DNA of 32,000 bases from Aquifex aeolicus VF5 (GTDB lineage Bacteria; Aquificota; Aquificia; Aquificales; Aquificaceae). This document shows, one piece after another, positions 1 through 30,946 of this stretch (positions are counted from its first letter, which is position 1; each line of letters begins with the position of its first letter). The stretch is from positions 570,001 to 602,000 of the forward strand of contig NC_000918.1 of NCBI RefSeq assembly GCF_000008625.1. The letters are read 5' to 3'. The notes beneath the pieces are model-generated. The model had not been told where the DNA came from. It saw only the letters and a list, made by a program, of their open reading frames with translations, and ran no database searches. Position numbers and translations under genes: made by a program.

Positions 1-884
<884 letters not shown>

Positions 885-931
885 ACCGGCGGGAGGAGGT
901 ACAGGCTTTATTCTGTTGACAAGGAGCCAAG

Positions 932-1004
932 TGGAGGTGGTGGGACTCGAACCCACGACCTCCTGCTTGCAAAGCAGGCGCTCTCCCAGCTGAGCTACAC
1001 CCCC
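932..1004 (-). tRNA. tRNA-Ala (anticodon UGC), CCA not encoded
   Basis: The reverse complement folds as GGGGGTG TA GCTC AGCTGGGA GAGC G CCTGC TT-TGC-AA GCAGG AGGTC GTGGG TTCGAGT CCCAC CACCTCC A. It has a full cloverleaf, the G3:U70 alanine identity pair and a TTCGAGT T-loop. Confidence 0.95.
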
Positions 1005-1020
1005 GAAGGTGCCCCTAATA

Positions 1021-1094
1021 TGGGCCTCCCAGGACTCGAACCTGGGACCTTGCCCTTATCAGGGGCACGCTCTAACCAGCTGAGCTAGAGGCCC
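1021..1094 (-). tRNA. tRNA-Ile (anticodon GAU), CCA not encoded
   Basis: The reverse complement folds as GGGCCTC TA GCTC AGCTGGTTA GAGC G TGCCC CT-GAT-AA GGGCA AGGTC CCAGG TTCGAGT CCTGG GAGGCCC A. It occupies the classical 16S-23S spacer position. Confidence 0.95.
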
Positions 1095-1109
1095 TGCTTT
1101 GCAAGGGGA

Positions 1110-1142
1110 GCAACTGAGTAGAGGGTGAGCCTCTCCTCCTTT
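1110..1142 (-). repeat. 3' arm of the 16S rRNA processing stem (pairs with 2849-2881)
   Basis: GCAACTGAGTAGAGGGTGAGCCTCTCCTCCTTT is the reverse complement of 2849-2881 at 32 of 33 positions. The two arms bracket the 16S gene, as expected for an RNase III-type precursor stem. Confidence 0.7.
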
Positions 1143-1199
1143 TATATGCACTAGACAGGGATGAGCTCCCCTTTTGTGGGGAGCTTTTGTCTCCGTTAT

Positions 1200-2776
<1,577 letters not shown>

Positions 2777-2848
2777 TCAGGGAAATAGGCGCAAGCGATT
2801 TATGGGGAACCAGAAATTGGGATCACCTGATGCTGGACCCCACTGATT

Positions 2849-3049: not shown

Positions 3050-3706
3050 ATGAAAAAACACGATGGAATAATTGTCCTGCTTTCAGGCGGAATGGACAGT
3101 GCAACGTTACTTTGGCTTGCAAAAAGGGAGTTTAAAAAGGTATACGCTATTTCCTTTGATTACGGTCAAAGGCATAAAGTTGAACTTAAATACGCAAAGG
3201 AACTTGCTAAACTTGCAGAGGTGGAAGATCACTTTATAGTTCAGGTGCCGTTTTATACCTCGCTTAAAGGCTCTGCTTTAATAGACGAGAGTGTTGAAGT
3301 TCCGAAAGGAGAGTACCCTGAAAACGAACCTCCTGTGACCACCGTTCCCATGAGGAATTTGATTTTTCTCTCAATTGCCTCCGCTTTTGCGGACAACCTA
3401 GAGGTAAATTACATAGGGATAGGTGTTCACGCCCTTGATACACCTTATCCAGATTGCAGACCTGAGTTTATAACCGCTGCGGAAGCAGCCATTAACGCAG
3501 GTTCTACTTTTGTTGCAAAGAAAAAGGAGAGAATGCACGTTTACGCTCCCTTTTTGGGTATGAGTAAAAGGGATATAGCACTCCTTGGGAAGGAACTTGG
3601 TGTTCCCTTTGAGAAGACTTACTCCTGCTATATGGGAACTGAACCACCCTGCGGAGAGTGTCCCACGTGTATACAGCGGGAGGAAGCTCTAAGGGGAATC
3701 CTCTAA
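3050..3706 (+). CDS. queC: 7-cyano-7-deazaguanine (preQ0) synthase QueC
   Basis: 218-aa ORF with the PP-loop motif LLSGGMDS near the N-terminus, VPMRNLIFLSIA in the middle, and the C-terminal Zn cluster SCY...CGECPTCIQR typical of QueC/ExsB. Confidence 0.9.
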   Translation: MKKHDGIIVLLSGGMDSATLLWLAKREFKKVYAISFDYGQRHKVELKYAKELAKLAEVEDHFIVQVPFYTSLKGSALIDESVEVPKGEYPENEPPVTTVPMRNLIFLSIASAFADNLEVNYIGIGVHALDTPYPDCRPEFITAAEAAINAGSTFVAKKKERMHVYAPFLGMSKRDIALLGKELGVPFEKTYSCYMGTEPPCGECPTCIQREEALRGIL

Positions 3707-4444
3707 GTACTTTATGCTTTTCATTACTTTGTAATTTGTAAGGTCAAGGTGCAGGGGTGTGACGGAAACGTATCCATTCAAAACTGCCCAGTAGTCTGTC
3801 CCTTCTTCCGCGTGCCAGCCGAATTCTTCAGCCGCGATCCAGTAAAAGGGCTTACCGTATGGGTCTATGTACTTAAAAACCCTTTCTTTGTAAGCCCTTT
3901 TTCCCTGCCTCGTTACTTTTATGCCCTTTATCTCTTCGTACCTGAGGTTAGGGATGTTTACGTTGAGGTATGTATCTTCGGGTATACCTTCGTTTAGGAC
4001 TTTCTTAACTATGTCCACGCACACTTTTGCTATTTCTTCGAACATTATATTTTCTCTGCCAAAAGCAGAAAAGGCTATAGAAGGTATTCCCAGTATCCTT
4101 CCTTCCATTGCTCCCGAAACAGTTCCGGAGTAAGTTATATCTTCTCCGAGGTTAGGTCCTTCGTTTATTCCCGAAAGTACAAGATCGGGTTTCTTTTCTT
4201 CAAGGATAACTCTGTAACCAAGGTGAACGCAGTCCGCAGGAGTTCCGTCTATAACGGTGTAAAAATCCGTGTCTATTTTCCTCATCTTCAGGGGTTCCGT
4301 AAAGGTGAGGGAGTGTCCAACGCCGCTTAAGTTCCTGTCGGGAGCGACTACAACTACTCTCCCAAGGGATTTCAAAGCTTCCCTGAGGGCGTTTATTCCG
4401 GGAGAAAAGTAACCATCGTCGTTTACCAATAAAAACGTAGGCAT
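3689..4444 (-). CDS. surE: 5'/3'-nucleotidase SurE
   Basis: 251-aa ORF. The N-terminal LLVNDDGYFSPGINAL and the SGINEGPNLGEDITYSGTVSGAMEG motif are hallmark SurE signatures. Confidence 0.9.
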   Translation of the reverse strand: MPTFLLVNDDGYFSPGINALREALKSLGRVVVVAPDRNLSGVGHSLTFTEPLKMRKIDTDFYTVIDGTPADCVHLGYRVILEEKKPDLVLSGINEGPNLGEDITYSGTVSGAMEGRILGIPSIAFSAFGRENIMFEEIAKVCVDIVKKVLNEGIPEDTYLNVNIPNLRYEEIKGIKVTRQGKRAYKERVFKYIDPYGKPFYWIAAEEFGWHAEEGTDYWAVLNGYVSVTPLHLDLTNYKVMKSIKYLEDSP

Positions 4445-4447
4445 AAT

Positions 4448-5086
4448 TCACCTAAGTATTTTAACCGTTCCCTCACCTATTATTTTCCCTCGTATCACCT
4501 TTCTGGAAAAGGGAGAAAGGACTCTGATAACTTCTCCGTAATACCCGTTTTCTAAAGCTTTCGTTCTGAACCTGATAACTACGTTTCCGTTTTCATACAC
4601 AGCGTTTACTATCTCACCTCTTTTAACCAGAAATTCCTTTTTCAGGTAGGATCTTCTTACAATTGTCCCTTTTTTTATCTCCTTTAAAGCTACAAAGTTT
4701 ACGAAGTTTTCCTTAAAATTTTGGGGACATCTTTCCAGATAAATTTCTCTCTCTTCTACGTTTGAAAAGTTCAGTCTTTCTCCAGGATATATATCCCTTT
4801 TCGCTACGAGCACCCTGCACTTCCACTCAAGTTCTAAGGCTATCGTTCCAACCTTTGTGTTTTTGAGGTGAAGAAATCCTCTTGGAGAATTTTTGTAAAC
4901 TTTGAGTTCTACTTTTGAAAAGTTATCAGGTATTCCCGTGAGAACTTTATAATTTTTCAGCCTAACTTCTTCACCAAACTCCTTTCTTAATTCATTTTTT
5001 ATCAGGCTTTCTAAGTCAAGGGAGAAAGTAAATAGAAAGAAAAGGAAATTAACGGCGTAAATTAGCCGCTTGAGAGAGCATTTCAT
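4448..5086 (-). CDS. flgA: flagellar basal-body P-ring formation protein FlgA (start uncertain; the ORF extends to 5119)
   Basis: Lies directly downstream of flgG. Has a signal-peptide-like N-terminus from the ATG at 5086 ([19 protein letters not shown]) and a C-terminal SAF-like segment ([27 protein letters not shown]) as in FlgA. Confidence 0.65.
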
Positions 5087-14456: not shown

Positions 14457-15247
14457 GTCTAAAAAAGCTCAACGTATACTTCTTTTTACTTTCTTCCTTG
14501 AGTCTTCTCCTGCTTTTGCTCCAAAACGTAAACAATCCCTTTACACAATTCATAAGAAACGGAGCTTTCATAGCGCTTTCTCCTATTTTGAAAGTTCAGG
14601 CGGAACTGGAAGAAGAGGTAAGAAAGGGAATAGAGTTCCTTAAGGATTTAAAGGAGGAGAGTAGATTAATAACGAAGTACAACAAGCTCAAGGAGGAGAT
14701 TTTAATATACAAGGAAAAGGTAAATTCCTACGAGAAAATGCTCCAAAAGCTTGAGAAGGATCTGGACTTTAATTTCCCGACACGGGCTGATTACGTAATT
14801 TCCAAGATAATTTTTTACGATACTTCTGGAAAGGATCTCTTCTTCATAATAAGGGACGGCCAGAATAAGGGTATAAAAAAGGGGGATTTAGTTGTGGCGA
14901 GGGGAGGGGTAGTCGGCGTGGTTGACGAAGTTTACTACTCAACGAGTAAAGTGATTTCCCTTTTCAACGAGAACACTTATCTGCTTGCCACGGTGAACAA
15001 TTCTGACAAAGTCTACGTTTACCACGGAGGGTATCCCCACGGAGAACTCCTGTACGTTGACGTAAACGATACGGTAAACGAGGGGGATGTAGTTCTGTTT
15101 AAAGACCTAACCATGAAAGTTCCAGCTTATAAAATAGGGAGTGTGGTATACTCGGGCATAAGTGAAAACCCTTTCTTCAAGAAGGTGAAGGTAGAGCCTT
15201 ACGTTTCTCCCAGAGAAGTGGAGTTCGTGGTAGTTTTTAAAGAATGA
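14453..15247 (+). CDS. mreC: rod-shape-determining protein MreC
   Basis: Overlaps the mreB stop by 4 nt. Has an N-terminal TM segment, a coiled-coil (EN/KL-rich) region and a C-terminal beta-rich domain (GDLVVARGGVVGVVDEV). Confidence 0.8.
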   Translation: MSLKKLNVYFFLLSSLSLLLLLLQNVNNPFTQFIRNGAFIALSPILKVQAELEEEVRKGIEFLKDLKEESRLITKYNKLKEEILIYKEKVNSYEKMLQKLEKDLDFNFPTRADYVISKIIFYDTSGKDLFFIIRDGQNKGIKKGDLVVARGGVVGVVDEVYYSTSKVISLFNENTYLLATVNNSDKVYVYHGGYPHGELLYVDVNDTVNEGDVVLFKDLTMKVPAYKIGSVVYSGISENPFFKKVKVEPYVSPREVEFVVVFKE

Positions 15248-15842
15248 GAAAGATAGTTGTTCTCTTCAGCGGAGGCGTGGAGAGCTCCGCCCTCCTTGCA
15301 CATTACCTCACGAGAAATTACTTGGTTTACCCCCTTTACGTGAGGTTCGGATACCCCTGGGAAAAGGAAGAAATAAAAAGGGCTAAAAAAGTATTTAACT
15401 TCTTTAAGTCCAAGTATCCAAACCTAATGCTTTTAGGTATAAGGAAGTTCAGGCGGTACTCAAAAGATTCAATAAAACTCCGAAGAGTGAAGAGGATTTA
15501 GAAATACCCATGAGAAACTTTATCCTTTGCACCGCGGGAGCACTTTACGGAGTCCCAAAAGGAATAAACACGTGTGCGATCGGGAGTTTGGGAATGTACC
15601 CATTTGAGGATAATAAAAAGGAGTTCTTTGAAAAATTATCCGAAACTATATCCATGAGCTTAGGTAAGGAGTTTTACATAGAAACTCCCTTTATGGGTAT
15701 GCACAAACACGAGGTAATAAAAAGATATGGAAAATTCATTCCCCTTGAACTTTCCCTTACGTGTATCAATCCCGTTAACGGAGAGCCATGCGGAAAGTGT
15801 ATAAAGTGCAAAGAGAGGGAAGAGGCCCTCAGTTTGCTCTAG
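15244..15842 (+). pseudogene. QueC-like PP-loop ATPase paralogue interrupted by a frameshift (ORFs 15244-15501 and 15510-15842)
   Basis: The first ORF carries the PP-loop VVLFSGGVESSAL. The second carries IPMRNFIL and the QueC-type Zn motif C-x8-CGKCIKCKEREEA. The second frame is open back to 15408 (…KTPKSEEDLEIPMRN), so the two frames overlap for ~90 nt. One -1 frame change somewhere in 15408-15498 restores a single protein of about 200 aa. Confidence 0.7.
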
Positions 15843-24330: not shown

Positions 24331-24619
24331 GGGGAACGCTTCCTCGGAAAGGACACTGTGCCTCCTATGGACACTGGGATACTCGTCGGCTCAATCCAGC
24401 TCGACTCCACACTACCCCACCAGCAGGTTAGGGAAATAGGTAAGAAAATCGCCAGAATTCTGGAGGAAGAAAAGGAGAGGGGACTAAAGAGATATTACTT
24501 GGCCTTCGGTACGGAACCCGGCACGATCACCATAGGCGGTGGTGGGAACATTCCTGACACTCGTATACGTTCCCATATTCTACATGGTCATCTACAGGAT
24601 AAAGCGCTTTCTCTCCTAG
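24331..24619 (+). pseudogene. eroded relic of an RND (AcrB/CzcA-type) efflux transporter gene
   Basis: Frame 1 (24331-~24540) reads ERFLGKDTVPPMDTGILVGSIQLDSTLPHQQVREIGKKIARILEEEKERGLKRYYLAFGTEPG. This resembles the FLP..DEG....v.lP.G.s...t......e..l.....v......G porter-domain segment of RND pumps. Frame 2 (24536-24619) reads AVVGTFLTLVYVPIFYMVIYRIKRFLS*, which resembles the last TM helix and C-terminus of RND pumps. Only about 95 codons of a roughly 1000-codon gene remain. Confidence 0.6.
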
Positions 24620-24945
24620 CCGTTTTTAAACTTTTCCAGTCTGCTCACCTGAACGTCCGAGACGAACACAACTCCAGAGTGCTTGTTAAAGAAGGGAGTG
24701 AGACCTTCAAGTATAGCTTCAACCTTCTCTTCGGGCATTACGGATATTACCATGTCAAGAACGTCCTCTTCGTTAAAGAGGAGATGCCCCTCGTGAAATC
24801 CGTGGCTTCCCTTTCCCGAAAGGTTGTGTATTATCGTGTATCCCTTTACTCCCGCCTTTTCAAGCAGGTCAAGCACAAAGTCTAAATCTTCACCTCTCAC
24901 GATTATCTCAACTTTCTTCATCTGGTAGAGGTTAAGCTTACCCAT
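24616..24945 (-). CDS. PII-like signal-transduction protein associated with the DAB module
   Basis: 109 aa. MKKVEIIVRGEDLDFVLDLLEKAGVKGYTII..LSGKGSHG follows the beta-alpha-beta/T-loop layout of GlnB-family proteins (compare MKKIEAII..FKLD.V...L...G..G.T...V.G.G). GGAGGT lies 5 nt upstream of the ATG at 24945, and the start overlaps the dabA-like stop by 8 nt. Confidence 0.75.
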   Translation of the reverse strand: MGKLNLYQMKKVEIIVRGEDLDFVLDLLEKAGVKGYTIIHNLSGKGSHGFHEGHLLFNEEDVLDMVISVMPEEKVEAILEGLTPFFNKHSGVVFVSDVQVSRLEKFKNG

Positions 24946-27900
24946 CTTTTACCTCCGTTTTAAGTTCGTTCCAGCTTCCCTTCTTATACCTGTAAAACTT
25001 CTTGCTTTCAGGGTCAAAGATTACGAAGTTCACCCACTCGTTCTGAATCAAGTTTCTGATAGCGTAAACCCTGTTTATAACGCTCAGGGCAAATTCATAG
25101 GGAGCCTCAAGTAGAATTATCAACCTTGCGGGTATGTGGAGAGGTTTCCCTTCTTTGTAAACGGTCTGAGTTGGGAGTCCGGTTCTCAGGTCGCTGAAGT
25201 TTCCGCTAATTACGCCGAACCTTCCCACCACGTTGTGGTAAACCTTACTGCCACTTCCGTACACCTCGTTGTCCGTCGTGGAGAAGTAGTATTCCATGTT
25301 AATCCACTGTCCGACTATCGCGGGACCTGAGAGTATAACTTCCAGAAGAAATCCCCTCCTGTCCACACGGTAGTCGTAAGAGTGAAGGAATACCTTACCT
25401 TCTAGGTTTAGATGTTTTGTGAGTTCTCTCCTTCCTATTACGAAGGCGTAGTTCCCGGAAAGTCCCCACTCGGGTCTTACCTGTGACCAGTCGTAGGCGT
25501 TTTCAACTACTTTGTATATTTTTCTGAGTTCGTCCTCCGCTTCCTCATCAAAGAGTTCCTTGTACCTCTCGGAAGCGGTAAGCATGCTCGCTTTGTCAAA
25601 GTCTTCCTTTATCTCTTTTAGTTTTTCCTTAACTTCTTGGGGAAATTGCTCAAGGTCGTAGAAGTGAACCTCGTCCGTTGTGGTGTTGTGAAGTCCCGGA
25701 ACGAAGTAAGTGTTCTCGGGAATGTTAATACCGAACTTTTCCTTTATCCTTTTCCTGACTTCCGGGTTGTTAGCCATTCTGCAAAAGACTATGGCGTTGT
25801 ATAGTCCAGAAGCACCACCGCAAGCACCGCAATCAAGGGCGGATTCATAAGGATTGTTGTCGGACTTGCTCCCGTGCCCGATTATGAAAACGAAGGGGGC
25901 AAACTCCGTAAGCCCCACCATCTTAAGAGCCCTTCCAATAAGGCTCGCCTGTTCGTCAAGGGTAAAACCGAGTTTGCTGAGTCTCTCAAACAGAATATTC
26001 CAGTAACCTCTGTCAACCTTGTACACCTTTCTCAGTCTTTCAATAAATTCCCTTTGTTTTTCACCTTTAAAGCCGTAGAGTTCCAGTCTTTCAGAGTAGT
26101 CCGTTTCTCCCAGGCACACCTTCAAGGTTTCTTCCAGAAGGGGCTTTTCCGGGTTCTTTATTCCGTATTCGTGCTCAAAAACCCTCTTTAAGATGGTCTC
26201 ATACACCCTGTTCACGAGCTCCTTTACTTCCTCTCTTGACGGCTTGTTTATTATGTAGTCCACATTTTCTTTAGACTCTAAAAGCTTTTCCTTTAGTTTT
26301 GAGTAGGAGTAAGGCATGAATGTCTTTCCTATGAAGTCAAACCCGAAGAGGAAACCTATCGCTTCAACGGTAACGTAGGGGGTGAGCACGTTTTGTTTTA
26401 AGTCGTGAAGTATGTGCTCAAGGAGATGAGTAACCTCGTATTCTTCCTTCATTTCTTTCGGTATCTCAAGAACTACGTTTCTCGGCTTTATGAGGACAGG
26501 GCACAGGAACTCTTCATGTCCTTTGTGAATTTCAACGAAGGCCATAGGGACGCCGAAGAACCCCGCTATTCCGTATGTTTCATAATTCCCTATCTTTTCT
26601 AAGTTTCTCCTGTACCTCTCCGAGCGAACGTCTATACAGAAGAGAGCCTGAGCTTTTGGCTTTTCCTTTTCCTGATTTGCCCTCAGAACGCCCTCTGTTA
26701 GCCTTTCTATTAGACTGTCTTCCAGAGCTTCAAGCCATATAAAGCCTTCCTTTTCTTGAAACTCCCCGTAGATTTCTAAAACTTTTTTAAGTTCTTCCTT
26801 AGAAAGTTCCTTTACCCTTTCACCGAGCCAGTCTTTCAAAAACAGGGCAAAGTTGGAGGCGTTTATGTGGGCTTTCCTTGAAAGGTAGGTGTTTATAAAA
26901 CTTTCAGCGTTTTTCAGGTTTTCCCTTACCTGCGAAGAGAGTTCAGCAGGAACCCTCTTGGTTGCGTACTCGTAGGTGAGGAATGCCTCTTCAATCTTTT
27001 CTTCAAAGAACCTTTTGAAGTTTTCATATGTAGGCTCAAAGGGGTAAACCTTTTTCCTGTGCTCCAGTATTCCCTTTTCCAGAATTAACCTTACAGCAAG
27101 AAATTCCACGAGGTCCGAGGGATAAACCCTCTGGAAGTAGTAGTGTTTGTTGTGAGAACGCCACTTTATGTAGCCCGCTATCCCTTTCAACTTTGCAAGC
27201 TCAAGGGTAATGTAGCGTTCCCACAGCTCCTCGGGAATTCCGTAAGACTTCAGGATATTATCTATTGCTTCTTCAGGCTCTTCAAAACTTTCCATAAGTT
27301 CACCGAGTTCTCTGCCTCCCCTGATTATAAACCTCAGGTTGTACTTGGCAAGTTCCCTGAAGGCTCTAAAGAATCCCTCCTTTCTCCTTGGCATTTCAAC
27401 CACAGACTGCCCTTCGTCCAGAAAGTCCAGGGAAAGCTTTATGAGCAACTCATTTACAGTTCTGTTTACACTTTCTCCAAAGAAAAGGTCCACAAAGTCC
27501 GCTATCGTGTACTTTTTCCCGAACTCTGAAAACAGGTTTTCCATTACTTCTTTCGGGTTTTCTGAAAAGAACCCCTTCAGTTTTTCAACAAGATCTGTGT
27601 CAGCTTCCCTGATAAGGTAGGTGTTCTCGTAAACTTTCAGCTTTTCGTCTTTTATAAGTCTTAAGAGATCCTCATAAGTAAGAGGTGCACCTTCCAGATT
27701 TACGTTTTCCTTTAAAGAATTCAGTAATTTTTCTTCTTTTATTAAGCCTTTGTTTAAAAAGTCTATGTAATCCTTTCTCCTTAAAAAAGCTCTTCCTTTA
27801 AATATTTCTTCTCCTTCTTTTATCGCTTTTGAAAAGTGTTCGCCTTCAAGCTCGTGGAGAGGGTTGTGGTAGACGAAGTTCCGCATAGGCCAGAAGTAGG

Positions 27901-27961
27901 AAAGCGGTTCTCCCGCTACGTTTACGAGTGAGCGTATGTATAACTTCCTTCCAAGTTCCAT
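24938..27961 (-). CDS. dabA: DUF2309-family protein, DabA/MpsB-like (putative vectorial carbonic-anhydrase subunit)
   Basis: 1007 aa and soluble-looking. The N-terminal PLSYFWPMRNFVYHNPL is typical of DUF2309. ALFCIDVRSERYRR (C442, D444) and IIGHGSKSDNNPYESALDCGACGG (H696, C711) reproduce the CxD / H-x14-C spacing of the Zn ligands reported for DabA. SD AGGGGGT lies 6 nt upstream, 13 nt after the stop of the membrane-subunit gene. Confidence 0.85.
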   Translation of the reverse strand: MELGRKLYIRSLVNVAGEPLSYFWPMRNFVYHNPLHELEGEHFSKAIKEGEEIFKGRAFLRRKDYIDFLNKGLIKEEKLLNSLKENVNLEGAPLTYEDLLRLIKDEKLKVYENTYLIREADTDLVEKLKGFFSENPKEVMENLFSEFGKKYTIADFVDLFFGESVNRTVNELLIKLSLDFLDEGQSVVEMPRRKEGFFRAFRELAKYNLRFIIRGGRELGELMESFEEPEEAIDNILKSYGIPEELWERYITLELAKLKGIAGYIKWRSHNKHYYFQRVYPSDLVEFLAVRLILEKGILEHRKKVYPFEPTYENFKRFFEEKIEEAFLTYEYATKRVPAELSSQVRENLKNAESFINTYLSRKAHINASNFALFLKDWLGERVKELSKEELKKVLEIYGEFQEKEGFIWLEALEDSLIERLTEGVLRANQEKEKPKAQALFCIDVRSERYRRNLEKIGNYETYGIAGFFGVPMAFVEIHKGHEEFLCPVLIKPRNVVLEIPKEMKEEYEVTHLLEHILHDLKQNVLTPYVTVEAIGFLFGFDFIGKTFMPYSYSKLKEKLLESKENVDYIINKPSREEVKELVNRVYETILKRVFEHEYGIKNPEKPLLEETLKVCLGETDYSERLELYGFKGEKQREFIERLRKVYKVDRGYWNILFERLSKLGFTLDEQASLIGRALKMVGLTEFAPFVFIIGHGSKSDNNPYESALDCGACGGASGLYNAIVFCRMANNPEVRKRIKEKFGINIPENTYFVPGLHNTTTDEVHFYDLEQFPQEVKEKLKEIKEDFDKASMLTASERYKELFDEEAEDELRKIYKVVENAYDWSQVRPEWGLSGNYAFVIGRRELTKHLNLEGKVFLHSYDYRVDRRGFLLEVILSGPAIVGQWINMEYYFSTTDNEVYGSGSKVYHNVVGRFGVISGNFSDLRTGLPTQTVYKEGKPLHIPARLIILLEAPYEFALSVINRVYAIRNLIQNEWVNFVIFDPESKKFYRYKKGSWNELKTEVKDG

Positions 27962-27974
27962 AACTCTACCCCCT

Positions 27975-30338
27975 TCAAGCGATAAAGAATCCGATTACAA
28001 GCAGTAAGACAAGAATTCCCAGGGCTGGTTTGAACACTCTATCGTCTAAATCCGTGTAAATCAGGTCTTCCCTTTCTCTGTAAAAGAGGAACTTCCCGAG
28101 GGATACGAGAATAGCTGTACTCAGTATCACCCAGCCAATTAGGAAAAGGGCGTATGTGTATAGGTTGAGTTCTATACCTGCGTAGTAGTATGCGTAAAAA
28201 GTTATGAAAAGGGGAGCTCCGTATAAGAAAAGAGCTGTGATAAAGGTAAGTGCGGAAAACTTAGGCGCTTTTTCCAAAAGTCCCGTTATAAATCCAAACT
28301 CAGAAGAGCCATAATACTTTCTAAGGAATTCACCAAGATATACGAGGATTAAAATTCCGAAAGCTACAAATATCCCGAGCCAGAACTTACTCGAAATCCA
28401 GAGAACTGAGGCAGAAGCTCCGAAAATATCGGGTATAAACTCACTTAAGTTTCTGGAAGAAAGACTCCTTAAAGAGAAAAAGGCAAAGGTTATTAAAGGC
28501 ACGAGTGGAGAAAGAGAAATTTCTCCGAAGAATACCACTCCGAGAAGGGAACCAATAAGTAAAAGAACAGAATAGGTGTAGGGATTACCCTTCAGCTTTA
28601 GAATCAGGTAAACGCTTGGAAGAAGAGGAATAAAGAGTCCTAGCAGAAGGGTTTTTACGAAATCTGCGGTGCTCAGCTCAAGGGCTAAGAGGAAAAGTGC
28701 AAAGAGAGATATTCCCGCGAATACGCTTTCTTTTTTCAAAACATCGGAGACTTTTAAAAGAAACTCTTTAATAAACTCGTAAAGGTCCGTAAAGTAGAGT
28801 TCTCTGGAGAGATGGGTGTAAACGAAGGTGTTGAAGGTAAGGAACTTTTCCTTGTTGGCGTAATATATGAAAACCCAACCCGCGAGTATTATCAGTCCTA
28901 TCAGTATCATTTCCGCTATGAGAACTACAGTATTTGCAAAGGAGCTTTCGTAAATTCTCTCTATTATTTCCTGATTGGGGTAAAGGAACTTAGAGAGTGT
29001 ATGTCCCATAACTACGTATCCGAGGAGGAATATAAGGAGTGAGAGTATAGCTATTAATGCTGAAAGCAGGGGCTTTTCCCTTTCCGTCCTGAAGGTGCTT
29101 ATCACGGCCTGTGCTCCCGTAGCCCAAGCGAAAAAGAAGATTATGAGCTGAGTTTCATATTCCAAAAAGTGCTCCTCAACTATCAGGTGTATTAAAACCA
29201 CGAGGAGCAAGGGAACGAGTATGGAGAGCAGTGCGTAAAGCAACCACGGCACGTTTTTCTCAAATTTTATTCCTCTTGTCACTACCTTGTAAACTTCGTC
29301 TTCTGGGATGTTTGGGTCCTTTCTCGCGCTGTGTATGACGTTACCCGAGTAAAGGAATAGGGTCGCCTTGAATATACCGTGTGCCATCATGTGGTAAACT
29401 GCAAGGGCAAAAGCACCTATCCCAAACTCCATAACCATGTATCCCATCTGCCCTACAGTGGAGTATCCCAGAGACTTTTTAACGTCGTTTTGTATAAGCA
29501 TCAGGGCGGAACCGAGTATCGCCGTAAGAGAACCTACGAAGAAGGCAAGGTAAAGTCCCGGGTTTTCGTGCGTAAAGAGAAAAGCAGTTCTGTTTACGAG
29601 GAAGGCTCCCGCGTTTACTATACCCGCATGCATGAGAGCGGATACGGGAGTGGGACCTTCCATACTGTATACAAGCCAGAGGTGAAATGGAACCTGCGCG
29701 GACTTTATCATGGCTGACATAACGACGAGTAGCGGAACTACCCACAGGGTAAACGAGTACCCTTCAAAGGAAAGTACGGCCTTTTCAAGTTCGGGAATGC
29801 TCAGGGTTCTGAATTCAAGGTAGAGGAGAACAATGGCTATAAGCAGGGGAACGTCCGCAAGCCTCTGGGTTATAAAACTCAGGTTGGCGAACCTTACCGC
29901 TTTCTCCTCACGGTAGTTGTGGTTCAGGAGTAAAAACAGGAGAACTCCTACGAGGTGCCAAGCGAAGAATAAAAGGAGCAGGTTTCCGGCAACCACGAGA
30001 AGGATAAGCGTAGCGGTCATTAAGTCCAGAAGGGCGTAAAAGCGTCTGTATCCAGGCTCGTCCCTCATGTAGTTTTCCGCGTACTTGTGTATCACAGAAC
30101 TGACGAGGAGTATGTAAGTAGAGAGGAGCAGCCCCAGTCTGTCTGGAAAGAGCTCTAAAACTCCGAAGAGAGAAAAGTGACCAAATGATCCAGTAAGCAG
30201 GAGAATTAAAGAAATGAGGAAGTTTGTGAGTGTAAAAGAAGTACTCAGCCGCGCTCCCAGAACTCTATTCTCAAGCCTATAGACAAGAAAAGCGGAAACC
30301 AGTTGCAGGAGTATAGGGAGGATGATCATGTATTGCAT
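27975..30338 (-). CDS. dabB: NuoL/NdhF/MrpA-like proton-conducting membrane subunit, DabB/MpsA-like, with an extra C-terminal domain
   Basis: 787 aa and highly hydrophobic. Complex-I antiporter-like subunit motifs are present: SAQVPFHLWL, PTPVSALMHAGIVNAGAFLVNR, SLGYSTVGQMGYM, HMMAHGIFKATLFLYSGNVIH and LSRELYFTDLYEF. No other nuo or mrp genes are adjacent. Confidence 0.85.
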   Translation of the reverse strand: MQYMIILPILLQLVSAFLVYRLENRVLGARLSTSFTLTNFLISLILLLTGSFGHFSLFGVLELFPDRLGLLLSTYILLVSSVIHKYAENYMRDEPGYRRFYALLDLMTATLILLVVAGNLLLLFFAWHLVGVLLFLLLNHNYREEKAVRFANLSFITQRLADVPLLIAIVLLYLEFRTLSIPELEKAVLSFEGYSFTLWVVPLLVVMSAMIKSAQVPFHLWLVYSMEGPTPVSALMHAGIVNAGAFLVNRTAFLFTHENPGLYLAFFVGSLTAILGSALMLIQNDVKKSLGYSTVGQMGYMVMEFGIGAFALAVYHMMAHGIFKATLFLYSGNVIHSARKDPNIPEDEVYKVVTRGIKFEKNVPWLLYALLSILVPLLLVVLIHLIVEEHFLEYETQLIIFFFAWATGAQAVISTFRTEREKPLLSALIAILSLLIFLLGYVVMGHTLSKFLYPNQEIIERIYESSFANTVVLIAEMILIGLIILAGWVFIYYANKEKFLTFNTFVYTHLSRELYFTDLYEFIKEFLLKVSDVLKKESVFAGISLFALFLLALELSTADFVKTLLLGLFIPLLPSVYLILKLKGNPYTYSVLLLIGSLLGVVFFGEISLSPLVPLITFAFFSLRSLSSRNLSEFIPDIFGASASVLWISSKFWLGIFVAFGILILVYLGEFLRKYYGSSEFGFITGLLEKAPKFSALTFITALFLYGAPLFITFYAYYYAGIELNLYTYALFLIGWVILSTAILVSLGKFLFYREREDLIYTDLDDRVFKPALGILVLLLVIGFFIA

Positions 30339-30346
30339 GGAAGGGT

Positions 30347-30352
30347 ATTATA
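30347..30352 (-). promoter_or_regulatory. possible -10 element (TATAAT) 8 nt upstream of the dabB-like ATG
   Basis: The minus strand reads CCCCTTATAATACCCTTCCATG. The -10 hexamer is perfect, but only a weak -35 (TTTCCT) lies at 17-nt spacing, and there is no SD before the ATG. Confidence 0.3.
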
Positions 30353-30392
30353 AGGGGAAAGGGAGAAAAAGGAAAGATGTTTTTTATCAGTT

Positions 30393-30596
30393 TTAGATGA
30401 GTTGTTGTTGTTTTTTGAGGGCTTTTAATATCTTCTTTCTCCTGTTCCTCTCCCTTTTCTTCTTCCTTTCACTCGGTGGCTCGTAGTACTCTCTCCTCTT
30501 TAACTCGGTCAAAATTTGTTCCTGCTCAACTCTTGCCTTGAACCTCTTTAAAACCTTCTCTATAGGTTCTCCTTCCTGAACAATTACCGTAACCAA
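30393..30596 (-). CDS. rpsU: 30S ribosomal protein S21
   Basis: 67 aa. VLKRFKARVEQEQILTELKRREYYEPPSERKKKRE matches the S21 pattern (ALRRFKR...G.L.E.RRRE.YEKP...RK). It uses a TTG start with AAGGAGGTG 8 nt upstream. Confidence 0.9.
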   Translation of the reverse strand: MVTVIVQEGEPIEKVLKRFKARVEQEQILTELKRREYYEPPSERKKKRERNRRKKILKALKKQQQLI

Positions 30597-30635: not shown

Positions 30636-30655
30636 AATTAAAATCTATTTTAGAG

Positions 30656-30946
30656 ATGTTCAAGTACATAATCTTAATAACATTTTTAATGGTTTTCAAC
30701 CTGGTCTATTCAATCTACTCCCTGAGGGTGTGGAAGGAGTACACTGAAAGTTTCTACTTCTACTCACACCTCGTAAAGGAAAACATGTTGCTTATGAAGG
30801 AAGTTCACGAGAGGATTAATTACAGAAAACTCCTGAAGTACGCAAGAAAGCACGGCTTTAAGGATGTAAGTCCGAAAGACGTCAAAGGAATTTTAGAGAT
30901 ATATCTAACCAGCGAGAAGAGTGAACAATCGCGCCAGAAGAAATGA
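30656..30946 (+). CDS. hypothetical small membrane-anchored protein (doubtful)
   Basis: From the ATG at 30656: MFKYIILITFLMVFNLVYSIYSL (a TM segment) followed by a charged tail. The 3' end overlaps the convergent nadC by 65 nt. I recognise no motif. Confidence 0.35.
   Translation: MFKYIILITFLMVFNLVYSIYSLRVWKEYTESFYFYSHLVKENMLLMKEVHERINYRKLLKYARKHGFKDVSPKDVKGILEIYLTSEKSEQSRQKK

Follow-up and report, generated by a model that had tools for sequence, protein, structure and literature searches.

The locus considered here raises the question of what a solitary NuoL-like membrane protein, a large DUF2309 protein and a small PII-like protein do together in Aquifex aeolicus VF5. Most probably the three genes form the operon of a DAB1-type vectorial carbonic anhydrase ('DabABC', a three-subunit DAC) together with its CPII regulator. 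The preliminary description had proposed a DAB/MpsAB-type inorganic carbon (Ci) pump with a CPII-like partner in a Rubisco-less autotroph of the Aquificales that uses the reductive TCA (rTCA) cycle, and every feature examined points the same way.

The three genes are located on the minus strand of the window, i.e., the whole 32-kb stretch of DNA analysed, and the ORF list matched exactly the co-oriented frames of 787, 1007 and 109 aa described before. The first gene, Aq_866 (27975..30338, annotated 'NuoL2'), is a dabB-dabC fusion encoding the 787-aa protein (PF00361, 2e-50; PF00662). The second, dabA or Aq_863 (24938..27961), encodes the DabA1-type beta-CA-like catalytic subunit of 1007 aa (PF10070, 3.4e-245), and the third (24616..24945) encodes the 109-aa CPII-type PII-like protein (PF00543, 9.6e-26); the PF10070 and PF00361 assignments suggested earlier for the two large proteins both held. 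The stop codon of dabB (TGA, 27977-27975) is separated from the dabA ATG at 27961 by 13 nt, which contain a Shine-Dalgarno-like AGGGGG (27969..27974, minus strand). The dabA stop codon (TAA, 24940-24938) and the PII start share an 8-nt overlap, and the PII ATG (24945-24943) is preceded by GGAGG (24956-24952). The spacing, the separate Shine-Dalgarno sequence of dabA and the overlap had all been noted before and were found in the sequence. The immediate upstream neighbour is rpsU (ribosomal protein S21; 30393..30596, minus strand; PF01165, 1.1e-16), and the 54-nt spacer between it and dabB carries a TATAAT 9 nt 5' of the dabB ATG and no recognisable Shine-Dalgarno sequence. No convincing promoter emerged from the consensus scan immediately 5' of dabB, and rpsU is possibly co-transcribed with this gene. 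Nothing stronger than a weak 5-bp hairpin was found 3' of the PII gene by the promoter/terminator scan. The order of the three genes was identical on an independent assembly. An RND-like remnant adjoins the operon. All other ORFs with 90 aa or more in the 32 kb were scanned, and neither a nuo or mrp gene nor any gene of Rubisco or the carboxysome was among them, which bears out the earlier statements on Rubisco and carboxysome genes and on complex I and Mrp subunits. These ORFs are of housekeeping type and comprise an rRNA operon, queC, surE, flgA/flgG, ilvD, trm1, tsaE, relA/spoT, mreBC, a miaB-like gene, corA, pdxA, PTPS, a TPR protein, Usp, purN, a wHTH regulator, a peroxiredoxin, rpsU and nadC.

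The criteria of the Scott lab for a DAC are PF10070, an operonic PF00361 gene and residues equivalent to C351, D353, H524 and C539, and all of them are present at the A. aeolicus locus. The features of the DAB1 subtype, i.e., a DabC module and a long DabA1 with an arm insertion after the elbow, were found as well. The PF10070 match covers residues 14-977 of DabA and positions 2-747 of the 747 in the profile; no NCBIfam model exists for DabA. The protein matches DabA2 (PDB 9rd0_A) with E=3e-83. Its predicted Zn ligands C442, D444, H696 and C711 align to C351, D353, H524 and C539 of DabA2 and are invariant across the DabA1 and DabA2 types, as are the elbow/finger residue E533 and L834. Residues D451, E704, D708, C709, G710 and L825 of T. 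albus DabA correspond to D444, E706, D710, C711, G712 and L834. The elbow extends over residues ~528-559 and the flexible arm over ~574-664, and insertions relative to the DabA2 type are found at residues ~110-148, 307-390 and 556-659. The DUF2309 assignment made earlier stood, but a purely soluble protein did not, given the membrane-inserting elbow/finger hairpin. Nor is this DabA enlarged, as had been supposed: it is the ordinary DabA1 form of standard length, as the DabA1 of Halothiobacillus neapolitanus has 1046 aa and hundreds of homologues have 1000-1046 aa.

The DabB portion of Aq_866 (residues 1-~545; 28704..30338, minus strand) is a NuoL-like proton-conducting module according to its alignment to NuoL and DabB2. 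The PF00361 match spans residues 117-344, and the AF2 model of the full-length 787-aa protein (pLDDT 85.5, pTM 0.89) has NuoL as its top fold match. The portion aligns to residues 71-362 of E. coli NuoL and 84-363 of H. neapolitanus DabB2, and residues 53-344 correspond to TM3-TM10 of NuoL. All ten tested DabB2 residues of the proton path are kept: R182, D185, K235, S256 and H260 as R159, D162, K212, S233 and H237, and K310, S316, H339, H343 and K347 as K287, S293, H316, H320 and K324. Mutation of each of these ten residues in DabB2 impairs DAB2 (PMC13144422). His128 occupies the position of NuoL E144 and DabB2 I151, and H336/R339 correspond to H328/R331 of T. albus DabB. TM12-15 of DabB are divergent and without a PDB sequence match, and when the C-terminal 454 residues were searched against the PDB as a single sequence, nothing useful was returned.

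The C-terminal ~230 residues of the 787-aa protein are DabC, a half antiporter-like subunit of the Hneap_0908 kind, fused to DabB. An HMM built from 61 free-standing middle ORFs of ~250 aa in DAB1 loci matched residues 561-785 (27984..28658, minus strand) with E=3.9e-18, and the module was present in 37 of the 38 long homologues versus none of the 82 short ones. In the PDB, the DabC family profile matched the C-terminal halves of ND4/NuoM, ND5 and MrpD (best E=4.1e-9), a relationship detected by the family profile only and not by the single sequence. The AF2 model of the module (pLDDT 87.5) gave Foldseek TMq values of 0.74-0.81 to ND4/NuoM/NdhD/MrpD. No Pfam family matched the module or the free-standing DabC at E<=10. 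The preliminary description had spoken of an extended DabB; the extra length is real, and its nature is DabB fused to the third DAB1 subunit, so that the locus holds four functional modules in three genes. The TM12 Lys/Glu position of the module is hydrophobic in the profile alignment, and the same was reported for DabC of T. albus DAB1 (bioRxiv 10.64898/2026.05.01.722082). DabC is a degenerate half antiporter-like module without the charged channel residues, and it most likely serves as a structural or allosteric brace. In most Aquificota, as well as in Marinithermus, DabB and DabC are joined in a single polypeptide; a phmmer search of the module against 1.84 billion representatives returned 7 matches and was too insensitive for the distribution of fused and split forms. 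The published texts that could be searched contained no statement of the fusion.

The PII-like protein is, judged by its sequence, clearly a CPII orthologue and not GlnB, GlnK or SbtB. It matched PDB 5d4n with E=7.6e-40 over its full length (59.8% identity over 107-108 residues), versus only ~1e-4 for GlnK and SbtB. We take 5D4N to be CPII, the carboxysome-associated PII protein of Thiomonas intermedia. That CPII is reportedly the subject of the work of Wheatley et al. in 2016 (J Mol Biol). An orthologue adjoins dabA in 73 of 75 DabA1-type loci, which together with the match to 5d4n supports the CPII-like partner named earlier. The carboxysome-locus association of CPII is absent from the A. 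aeolicus 32 kb, and the conserved partner is dabA; because no carboxysome or Rubisco gene is found there, the term 'carboxysome-associated' does not apply to this protein. A connection with an efflux pump, raised by a weak match to the NCBIfam model 'PG0541 transporter-associated protein' (score 28 bits, below the cut-off of 45) and by the RND-like remnant nearby, was rejected in view of the CPII orthology and the dabA partnership. As cited in 10.1101/762807, HCO3- changes the nucleotide (ADP/AMP) affinity of the T. intermedia protein. PII is unmentioned in the texts of the DAB2 structure paper (PMC13144422) and of the T. albus preprint (10.64898/2026.05.01.722082); therefore, no CPII-DAB interaction is described there, and the CPII side of DAB1 appears unexplored. 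We put forward only tentatively that CPII could belong to DAB1 as its fourth subunit, dedicated to regulation, and not be a carboxysome protein; in the Rubisco-free Aquificaceae it would gate the pump by cytoplasmic HCO3- and adenylate charge. HCO3- would revert rapidly to CO2 at high temperature, and a proton-costly vectorial carbonic anhydrase would on that account be throttled by CPII. If this were true, the DabB-DabC fusion would offer a simplified, thermostable two-polypeptide DAB1 suited to reconstituting CPII regulation.

Energy-dependent Ci accumulation or rescue of carbonic anhydrase (CA)-free E. coli has been shown for the homologues T. albus DAB1, DAB2 and MpsAB, and a similar function may be expected for A. 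aeolicus by analogy. For the coupling ion, the action of CPII and the metabolic destination of HCO3-, we infer the following scheme. After diffusing into the cell, CO2 would enter the deeply buried, beta-CA-like Zn site of DabA (C442, D444, H696, C711). An ion, most likely H+, would flow down the membrane potential via K212, H237, K287, H316, H320 and K324 of DabB, and the flow would be relayed via E533 in the elbow hairpin of DabA and via the interface E706/D710-H336/R339. Ion flow transmitted to DabA in this manner would make hydration one-directional, so that HCO3- could be released to the cytoplasm above equilibrium. The fused DabC would most likely brace the complex, and the translationally coupled CPII most likely acts as a sensor of HCO3- and adenine nucleotides that modulates the pump. 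The accumulated HCO3- would probably be consumed by HCO3--using carboxylases, such as pyruvate carboxylase and 2-oxoglutarate carboxylase, and by anaplerotic and biosynthetic carboxylations in general.

Bicarbonate supply to the biotin carboxylases of the rTCA cycle is a reasonable expectation. The 2-oxoacid:ferredoxin oxidoreductases use CO2, not HCO3-. In other Aquificaceae the operon is directly downstream of the genes of these enzymes, and therefore the sink may exceed the biotin carboxylases alone. This position also argues against a general CA substitute serving all carboxylations, comparable to MpsAB in the heterotrophic S. aureus, instead of a concentrator dedicated to the rTCA cycle; so does the finding that this protein ranks with the most abundant ones in the membranes of autotrophically grown A. 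aeolicus (PMC10052474). On the other hand, DAB/MpsAB homologues that stand in for CA are frequent in heterotrophs, the DIC transporters of the Aquificaceae reportedly take the place of the multiple CAs of the Hydrogenothermaceae, and the A. aeolicus operon lies amid housekeeping rather than rTCA genes in the window. A general CA substitute is somewhat unlikely on balance, and CA replacement and rTCA-dedicated CO2 concentration are not mutually exclusive.

A. aeolicus is marine, and a marine hyperthermophile with a proton-leaky membrane would suit the same architecture coupled to Na+ instead of H+, as an MpsAB-like Na+-dependent bicarbonate accumulator or a Na+ translocator. It has been argued that S. 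aureus MpsAB uses a sodium gradient (PMC13144422). Furthermore, His128 of the DAB1-type DabB is replaced by Ile in DabB2 and by Glu in NuoL, so that the ion-pair region of the DAB1 type is unlike that of DAB2, the one complex for which Na+ independence has been tested. However, the A. aeolicus protein retains every Lys, His and Ser of the DabB2/NuoL proton path, DAB2 is Na+-independent (PMC13144422), and T. albus DAB1 contains a water chain that its authors read as a proton path (10.64898/2026.05.01.722082). Coupling to Na+ is thus improbable, and H+ coupling is preferred.

That the 787-aa protein is a true extra NuoL or MrpA ('NuoL2') of an NDH-1 or Mrp complex, with unrelated DUF2309 and PII genes beside it, is very hard to sustain and is effectively already refuted: the database names (NADH-quinone oxidoreductase subunit L/5), the NuoL models as best NCBIfam matches and the MrpA-like length favour it, but those matches are below cut-off (282.6 bits versus 556 for the NuoL model NF005141, over residues 5-344 only; 153 versus 937 for the best MrpA model), no nuo or mrp gene is within 32 kb, dabA and the nuoL-like gene are tightly coupled in 80/80 related loci, the C-terminal half consists of DabB-specific sequence plus DabC and is neither the lateral helix of NuoL nor the C-domain of MrpA, and 'NuoL2' was called a misannotation by Prioretti 2023 (PMC10052474). 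The low scores and the missing partners also uphold the earlier view of a lone NuoL-like protein outside the respiratory complexes.

Seven DACs were reportedly tested by Schmid et al. in 2021 (J Bacteriol). Operons of the nuoL-homologue/ybcC/PII class have been described (PMC5700660), and the structure and mutagenesis of H. neapolitanus DAB2 were presented by Lo et al. 2026 (PMC13144422). Aq_866/Aq_863 were named 'probably DabAB' by Prioretti 2023, who detected them by proteomics as highly abundant in A. aeolicus membranes (PMC10052474). DIC transporters, the class that includes DAC, were covered for rTCA Aquificaceae by the Scott-lab surveys of 2024 and 2026. Phillips et al. solved T. albus DAB1 by cryo-EM at 2.13 Å and showed that it rescues CA-free E. 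coli and requires DabC (bioRxiv 10.64898/2026.05.01.722082). The claim that the thermophilic three-gene version is experimentally uncharacterised must therefore be withdrawn, as the system is already known for this organism and its structure for the close relative T. albus. DAB complexes are compact PMF-driven CO2 pumps of relevance to chemoautotrophic carbon fixation and the engineering of CO2 uptake, and this locus places the DAB1 type, together with a CPII partner, in a hyperthermophile that has neither Rubisco nor carboxysomes and relies on the rTCA cycle to fix carbon. Since such a case is already in the literature, the practical value is modest; what is added is the re-annotation of 'NuoL2' as DabB-DabC, the occurrence of this single polypeptide in most Aquificota and Marinithermus, and the pointer to CPII.

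As compared to complex I and Mrp, the DabC module matches the C-terminal half of NuoM/ND4/MrpD in sequence and fold, but no partner subunits are encoded in the window. H. neapolitanus DAB2 (PDB 9rd0) and S. aureus MpsAB consist of the same two core families and share the Zn site, the Leu at the Gln position, the finger Glu and the DabB proton-path residues; however, they have neither DabC nor an adjacent CPII, their DabA is shorter (827-900 aa) and without the three DabA1 insertions, and their DabB has Ile in place of His128. The CPII of T. intermedia, 59.8% identical to the A. aeolicus protein, is encoded at the same place directly after dabA, and ligand binding by the latter is putative. The same subunit set is found in H. 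neapolitanus DAB1, with Hneap_0907 (DabA1), Hneap_0908 (DabC), Hneap_0909 (DabB1, 559 aa) and a P-II gene in the operon; DabA identity to A. aeolicus is ~41-43%, and His is also present at the NuoL E144 position. In the related loci L057 and L060, from other Halothiobacillus genomes, the middle ORF has 250 and 258 aa and the PII gene directly follows dabA. DabB and DabC are encoded separately in H. neapolitanus but fused in A. aeolicus, and the H. neapolitanus operon adjoins a carboxysome/Rubisco locus, unlike that of A. aeolicus. Of 140 flanking ORFs sampled from 20 proteobacterial DAB1-type loci, 5 matched the RuBisCO large chain and 3 CsoS2 or CsoSCA. The closest counterpart is T. albus DAB1, of the same family Aquificaceae and the same DabA1 type, with DabA 52% and DabB(-C) 45% identical; it belongs to a different genus, and 48-55% of the residues differ. 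The preprint describes a heterotrimer and mentions neither a B-C fusion nor a PII gene, but the public record has the DabC module (residues 551-755, E=1.1e-17) within the same 759-aa ORF as DabB. A. aeolicus DabA has both the elbow and the flexible arm, and every residue named in the preprint is conserved.

The three genes lie on the minus strand in the order dabB (27975-30338, 787 aa), dabA (24938-27961, 1007 aa) and a PII gene (24616-24945, 109 aa), and the ORF list matched exactly the preliminary description, which had proposed an inorganic-carbon pump of the DAB/MpsAB type with a PII-like partner. The dabB product is 100% identical to a protein of Aquifex aeolicus, so the assignment to Aquificales was correct, and the gene order was identical in an independent assembly. 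Pfam searches assigned PF00361 (2e-50) and PF00662 to DabB and PF10070 (DabA, 3.4e-245, full length) to DabA, bearing out the expected families of the two large ORFs. The 13-nt spacer between dabB and dabA, with AGGGGG inside, and the 8 nt over which the end of dabA overlaps the start of the PII gene (ATGGGTAA), a start preceded by GGAGG, were both read in the sequence as described. The other window ORFs of at least 90 aa are all housekeeping genes, and no Rubisco, carboxysome, nuo or mrp gene is among them, as had been claimed. The immediate upstream neighbour of dabB is rpsU (30393-30596), whose stop is only 54 nt away; no Shine-Dalgarno sequence is present in 30339-30392, where a perfect TATAAT precedes the dabB ATG by 9 nt. 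These features suggest either that dabB is co-transcribed with ribosomal protein S21 or that its transcript is near-leaderless. A small hydrophobic plus-strand ORF of about 60 aa ('MFKYIILITFLMVFNLVYSIY...', ~30655-30840) is located between nadC and rpsU, divergent from the latter, where the independent assembly has a 96-aa gene without a Pfam match. In the interval between the PII and peroxiredoxin genes, a plus-strand stretch of ~260 nt (24358-24619) resembles a frameshifted remnant of the C-terminus of an RND/AcrB-type transporter, reading '...LAFGTEPGTITIGGG', then 'VVGTFLTLVYVPIFYMVIYRIKRFLS' and a stop in another frame. The stop codons of this stretch and of the PII gene overlap in a CTAG palindrome, and the stretch has no Pfam match and no gene called in the independent assembly.

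DabB had been described as extended. The protein is indeed longer, but it is a DabB-DabC fusion rather than an extension. Most of the 80 genome loci analysed with relatives of the window DabA encode a DabB of 550-613 aa (typically ~559), after which comes a gap of 715-799 nt. A membrane ORF of 234-296 aa occupies this gap in 61 loci from Proteobacteria and one Aquificaceae MAG; it codes for the third subunit of DAB1, which is Hneap_0908, today named DabC (bioRxiv 10.64898/2026.05.01.722082). The remaining loci, all of Aquificota, have a DabB of 754-790 aa at -4 to +4 nt from dabA, without the middle ORF. An HMM built from these 61 membrane ORFs matched residues 561-785 of the window protein (E=3.9e-18) and eight out of eight other long DabB proteins (1e-12 to 5e-28). 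Among 120 database homologues, the DabC module was present in 37 of the 38 with at least 700 aa versus none of the 82 shorter ones. Long DabB proteins are encoded by Aquifex, Hydrogenivirga caldilitoris, Thermocrinis albus, a Sulfurihydrogenibium MAG and Marinithermus hydrothermalis. The public 759-aa T. albus protein carries the module at 551-755, and none of the searchable texts said outright that DabB and DabC share one ORF in Aquificaceae, T. albus included. Marinithermus (homologue P0140; also P0025) is a thermophile of Deinococcota with a fused DabB-DabC of 746 aa, and its DabA shares 48% identity with that of the window; this suggests that the fused operon moved laterally between thermophilic phyla.

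DabC had no Pfam family match. A profile of 30 DabC modules, free-standing and fused, was searched against the PDB and matched the C-terminal halves of ND4/NuoM, ND5/NuoL and MrpD/MbhH, the best match (E=4.1e-9) being onto ND4 residues 274-465. The 'GGL..P' and 'G...D..DL' loops are conserved between DabC and these matches, and the TM12 Glu/Lys position is hydrophobic in DabC. The AF2 model of residues 545-787 (pLDDT 87.5) gave TM scores against ND4/NuoM/NdhD/MrpD of 0.74-0.81 when normalised by the query and ~0.4 when normalised by the target; DabC is therefore, as modelled, half of an antiporter-like subunit. Based on the T. albus structure, Phillips et al. describe DabC as roughly half of NuoM and as hydrophobic at the positions of the NuoM proton-path residues, and they report that it is required in vivo (bioRxiv 10.64898/2026.05.01.722082). 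Our findings are an independent reproduction of this description.

The NuoL-like protein was held not to be a respiratory subunit, and this stands: the NCBIfam NuoL and MrpA models cover residues 5-344 only, with scores far under their cut-offs, and the window has no nuo or mrp gene. With DabB2 numbering reconstructed from the PDB alignment, all ten positions at which mutation impairs DAB2 (PMC13144422) are conserved, namely R159, D162, K212, S233, H237, K287, S293, H316, H320 and K324 in window numbering. Residue 128 (nt ~29955-29957, minus strand), at the position of NuoL E144 and DabB2 I151, is His in all DAB1-type DabB examined, fused or split, versus Ile in the DAB2 type, and by alignment this is a clean subtype signature. 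The ion-pair region holding it was tied to the open/closed switch by Lo et al. (PMC13144422).

DabA matched H. neapolitanus DabA2, whose structure is solved (9rd0_A, E=3e-83), and the motifs FCIDVRSE and GHGS...LDCGACGG could be aligned between them. The Zn ligands C442, D444, H696 and C711, the finger/elbow E533 and L834, the Leu replacing the beta-CA Gln, are invariant in an alignment of 19 DabA1-type sequences and are kept in DabA2-type sequences too. DabA had been called enlarged, but 1007 aa is an ordinary DabA1 size, as most close homologues have 1000-1046 aa and DabA1 of H. neapolitanus has 1046 aa. In the alignment including DabA2-type sequences, the extra length consists of insertions at ~110-148, 307-390 and 556-659, the last corresponding to the T. 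albus flexible arm after the elbow.

The PII-like partner (PF00543, 9.6e-26) was confirmed and could be specified further. It matched PDB 5d4n, which we take to be T. intermedia CPII, over its full length (E=7.6e-40, 59.8% identity) versus only ~1e-4 for GlnK and SbtB, and is by this similarity a CPII orthologue. Of the 75 DabA1-type loci whose 3' end is complete, 73 have a CPII gene directly 3' of dabA, 60 of the 73 with a 4-nt overlap. Proteobacterial DAB1-type loci are flanked by ORFs that include Rubisco, CsoS2, CsoSCA, CbbQ and LysR genes, all absent from the flanks of the Aquificota loci. CPII thus tracks DabA1 rather than the carboxysome. No joint treatment of CPII and DAB1 was found in the searchable texts, and 'PII' occurs zero times in both structure papers.

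Elsewhere in the window, a divergent second gene of the QueC type shares 29% identity with the intact queC (3050-3706) and is divided between two plus-strand ORFs in different frames. The first, of 85 aa (15244-15501), has the N-terminal SGG PP-loop motif, and the second, of 110 aa (15510-15842), matches positions 95-207 of the QueC profile. The pair represents either a pseudogene or a paralogue that is genuinely split. The end of an rRNA operon (1-2783, minus strand) comprises the 5' part of 23S, tRNA-Ala(TGC), tRNA-Ile(GAT) and a complete 16S, with a GC content of 53-63% versus ~43% in the rest of the window; high rRNA GC is expected of a hyperthermophile.

Several Aquificota dab operons (loci L001, L003, L007 and L009) are directly downstream of genes for a five-subunit 2-oxoacid:ferredoxin oxidoreductase, with PF02552, POR_N, TPP_enzyme_C and POR upstream of dabB in these other Aquificaceae. 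Locus L004 has a CobW/COG0523 GTPase (3706-4629) immediately upstream of dabB, a family of putative zinc chaperones. Neither the oxidoreductase genes nor the GTPase occur in this window. The bicarbonate may be consumed by carboxylases that use HCO3- in the rTCA cycle of Aquificaceae, and CPII may regulate the pump; the secondary literature supports each in part.

The operon is real and was correctly interpreted, yet it is already known. Klimchuk et al. described operons of a nuoL homologue, ybcC and PII in 2017 (PMC5700660). Prioretti et al. reported in 2023 that Aq_866 ('misannotated as NuoL2') and Aq_863, both highly abundant in A. aeolicus membranes, are probably DabAB (PMC10052474). The Scott-lab surveys found that rTCA Aquificaceae have DIC transporters (a class including DAC), with genes co-located with OFOR genes. 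The claim of novelty does not stand: Aq_866 and Aq_863 were named in 2023, and Phillips et al. showed in 2026 that the T. albus complex is functional and solved its structure at 2.13 Å (bioRxiv 10.64898/2026.05.01.722082). By homology with DAB2 and T. albus DAB1, the complex would act as a PMF-driven vectorial carbonic anhydrase. T. albus DabA residues D451, E704, D708, C709, G710 and L825 correspond one-to-one to D444, E706, D710, C711, G712 and L834 of the window protein, and T. albus DabB H328/R331 correspond to H336/R339.
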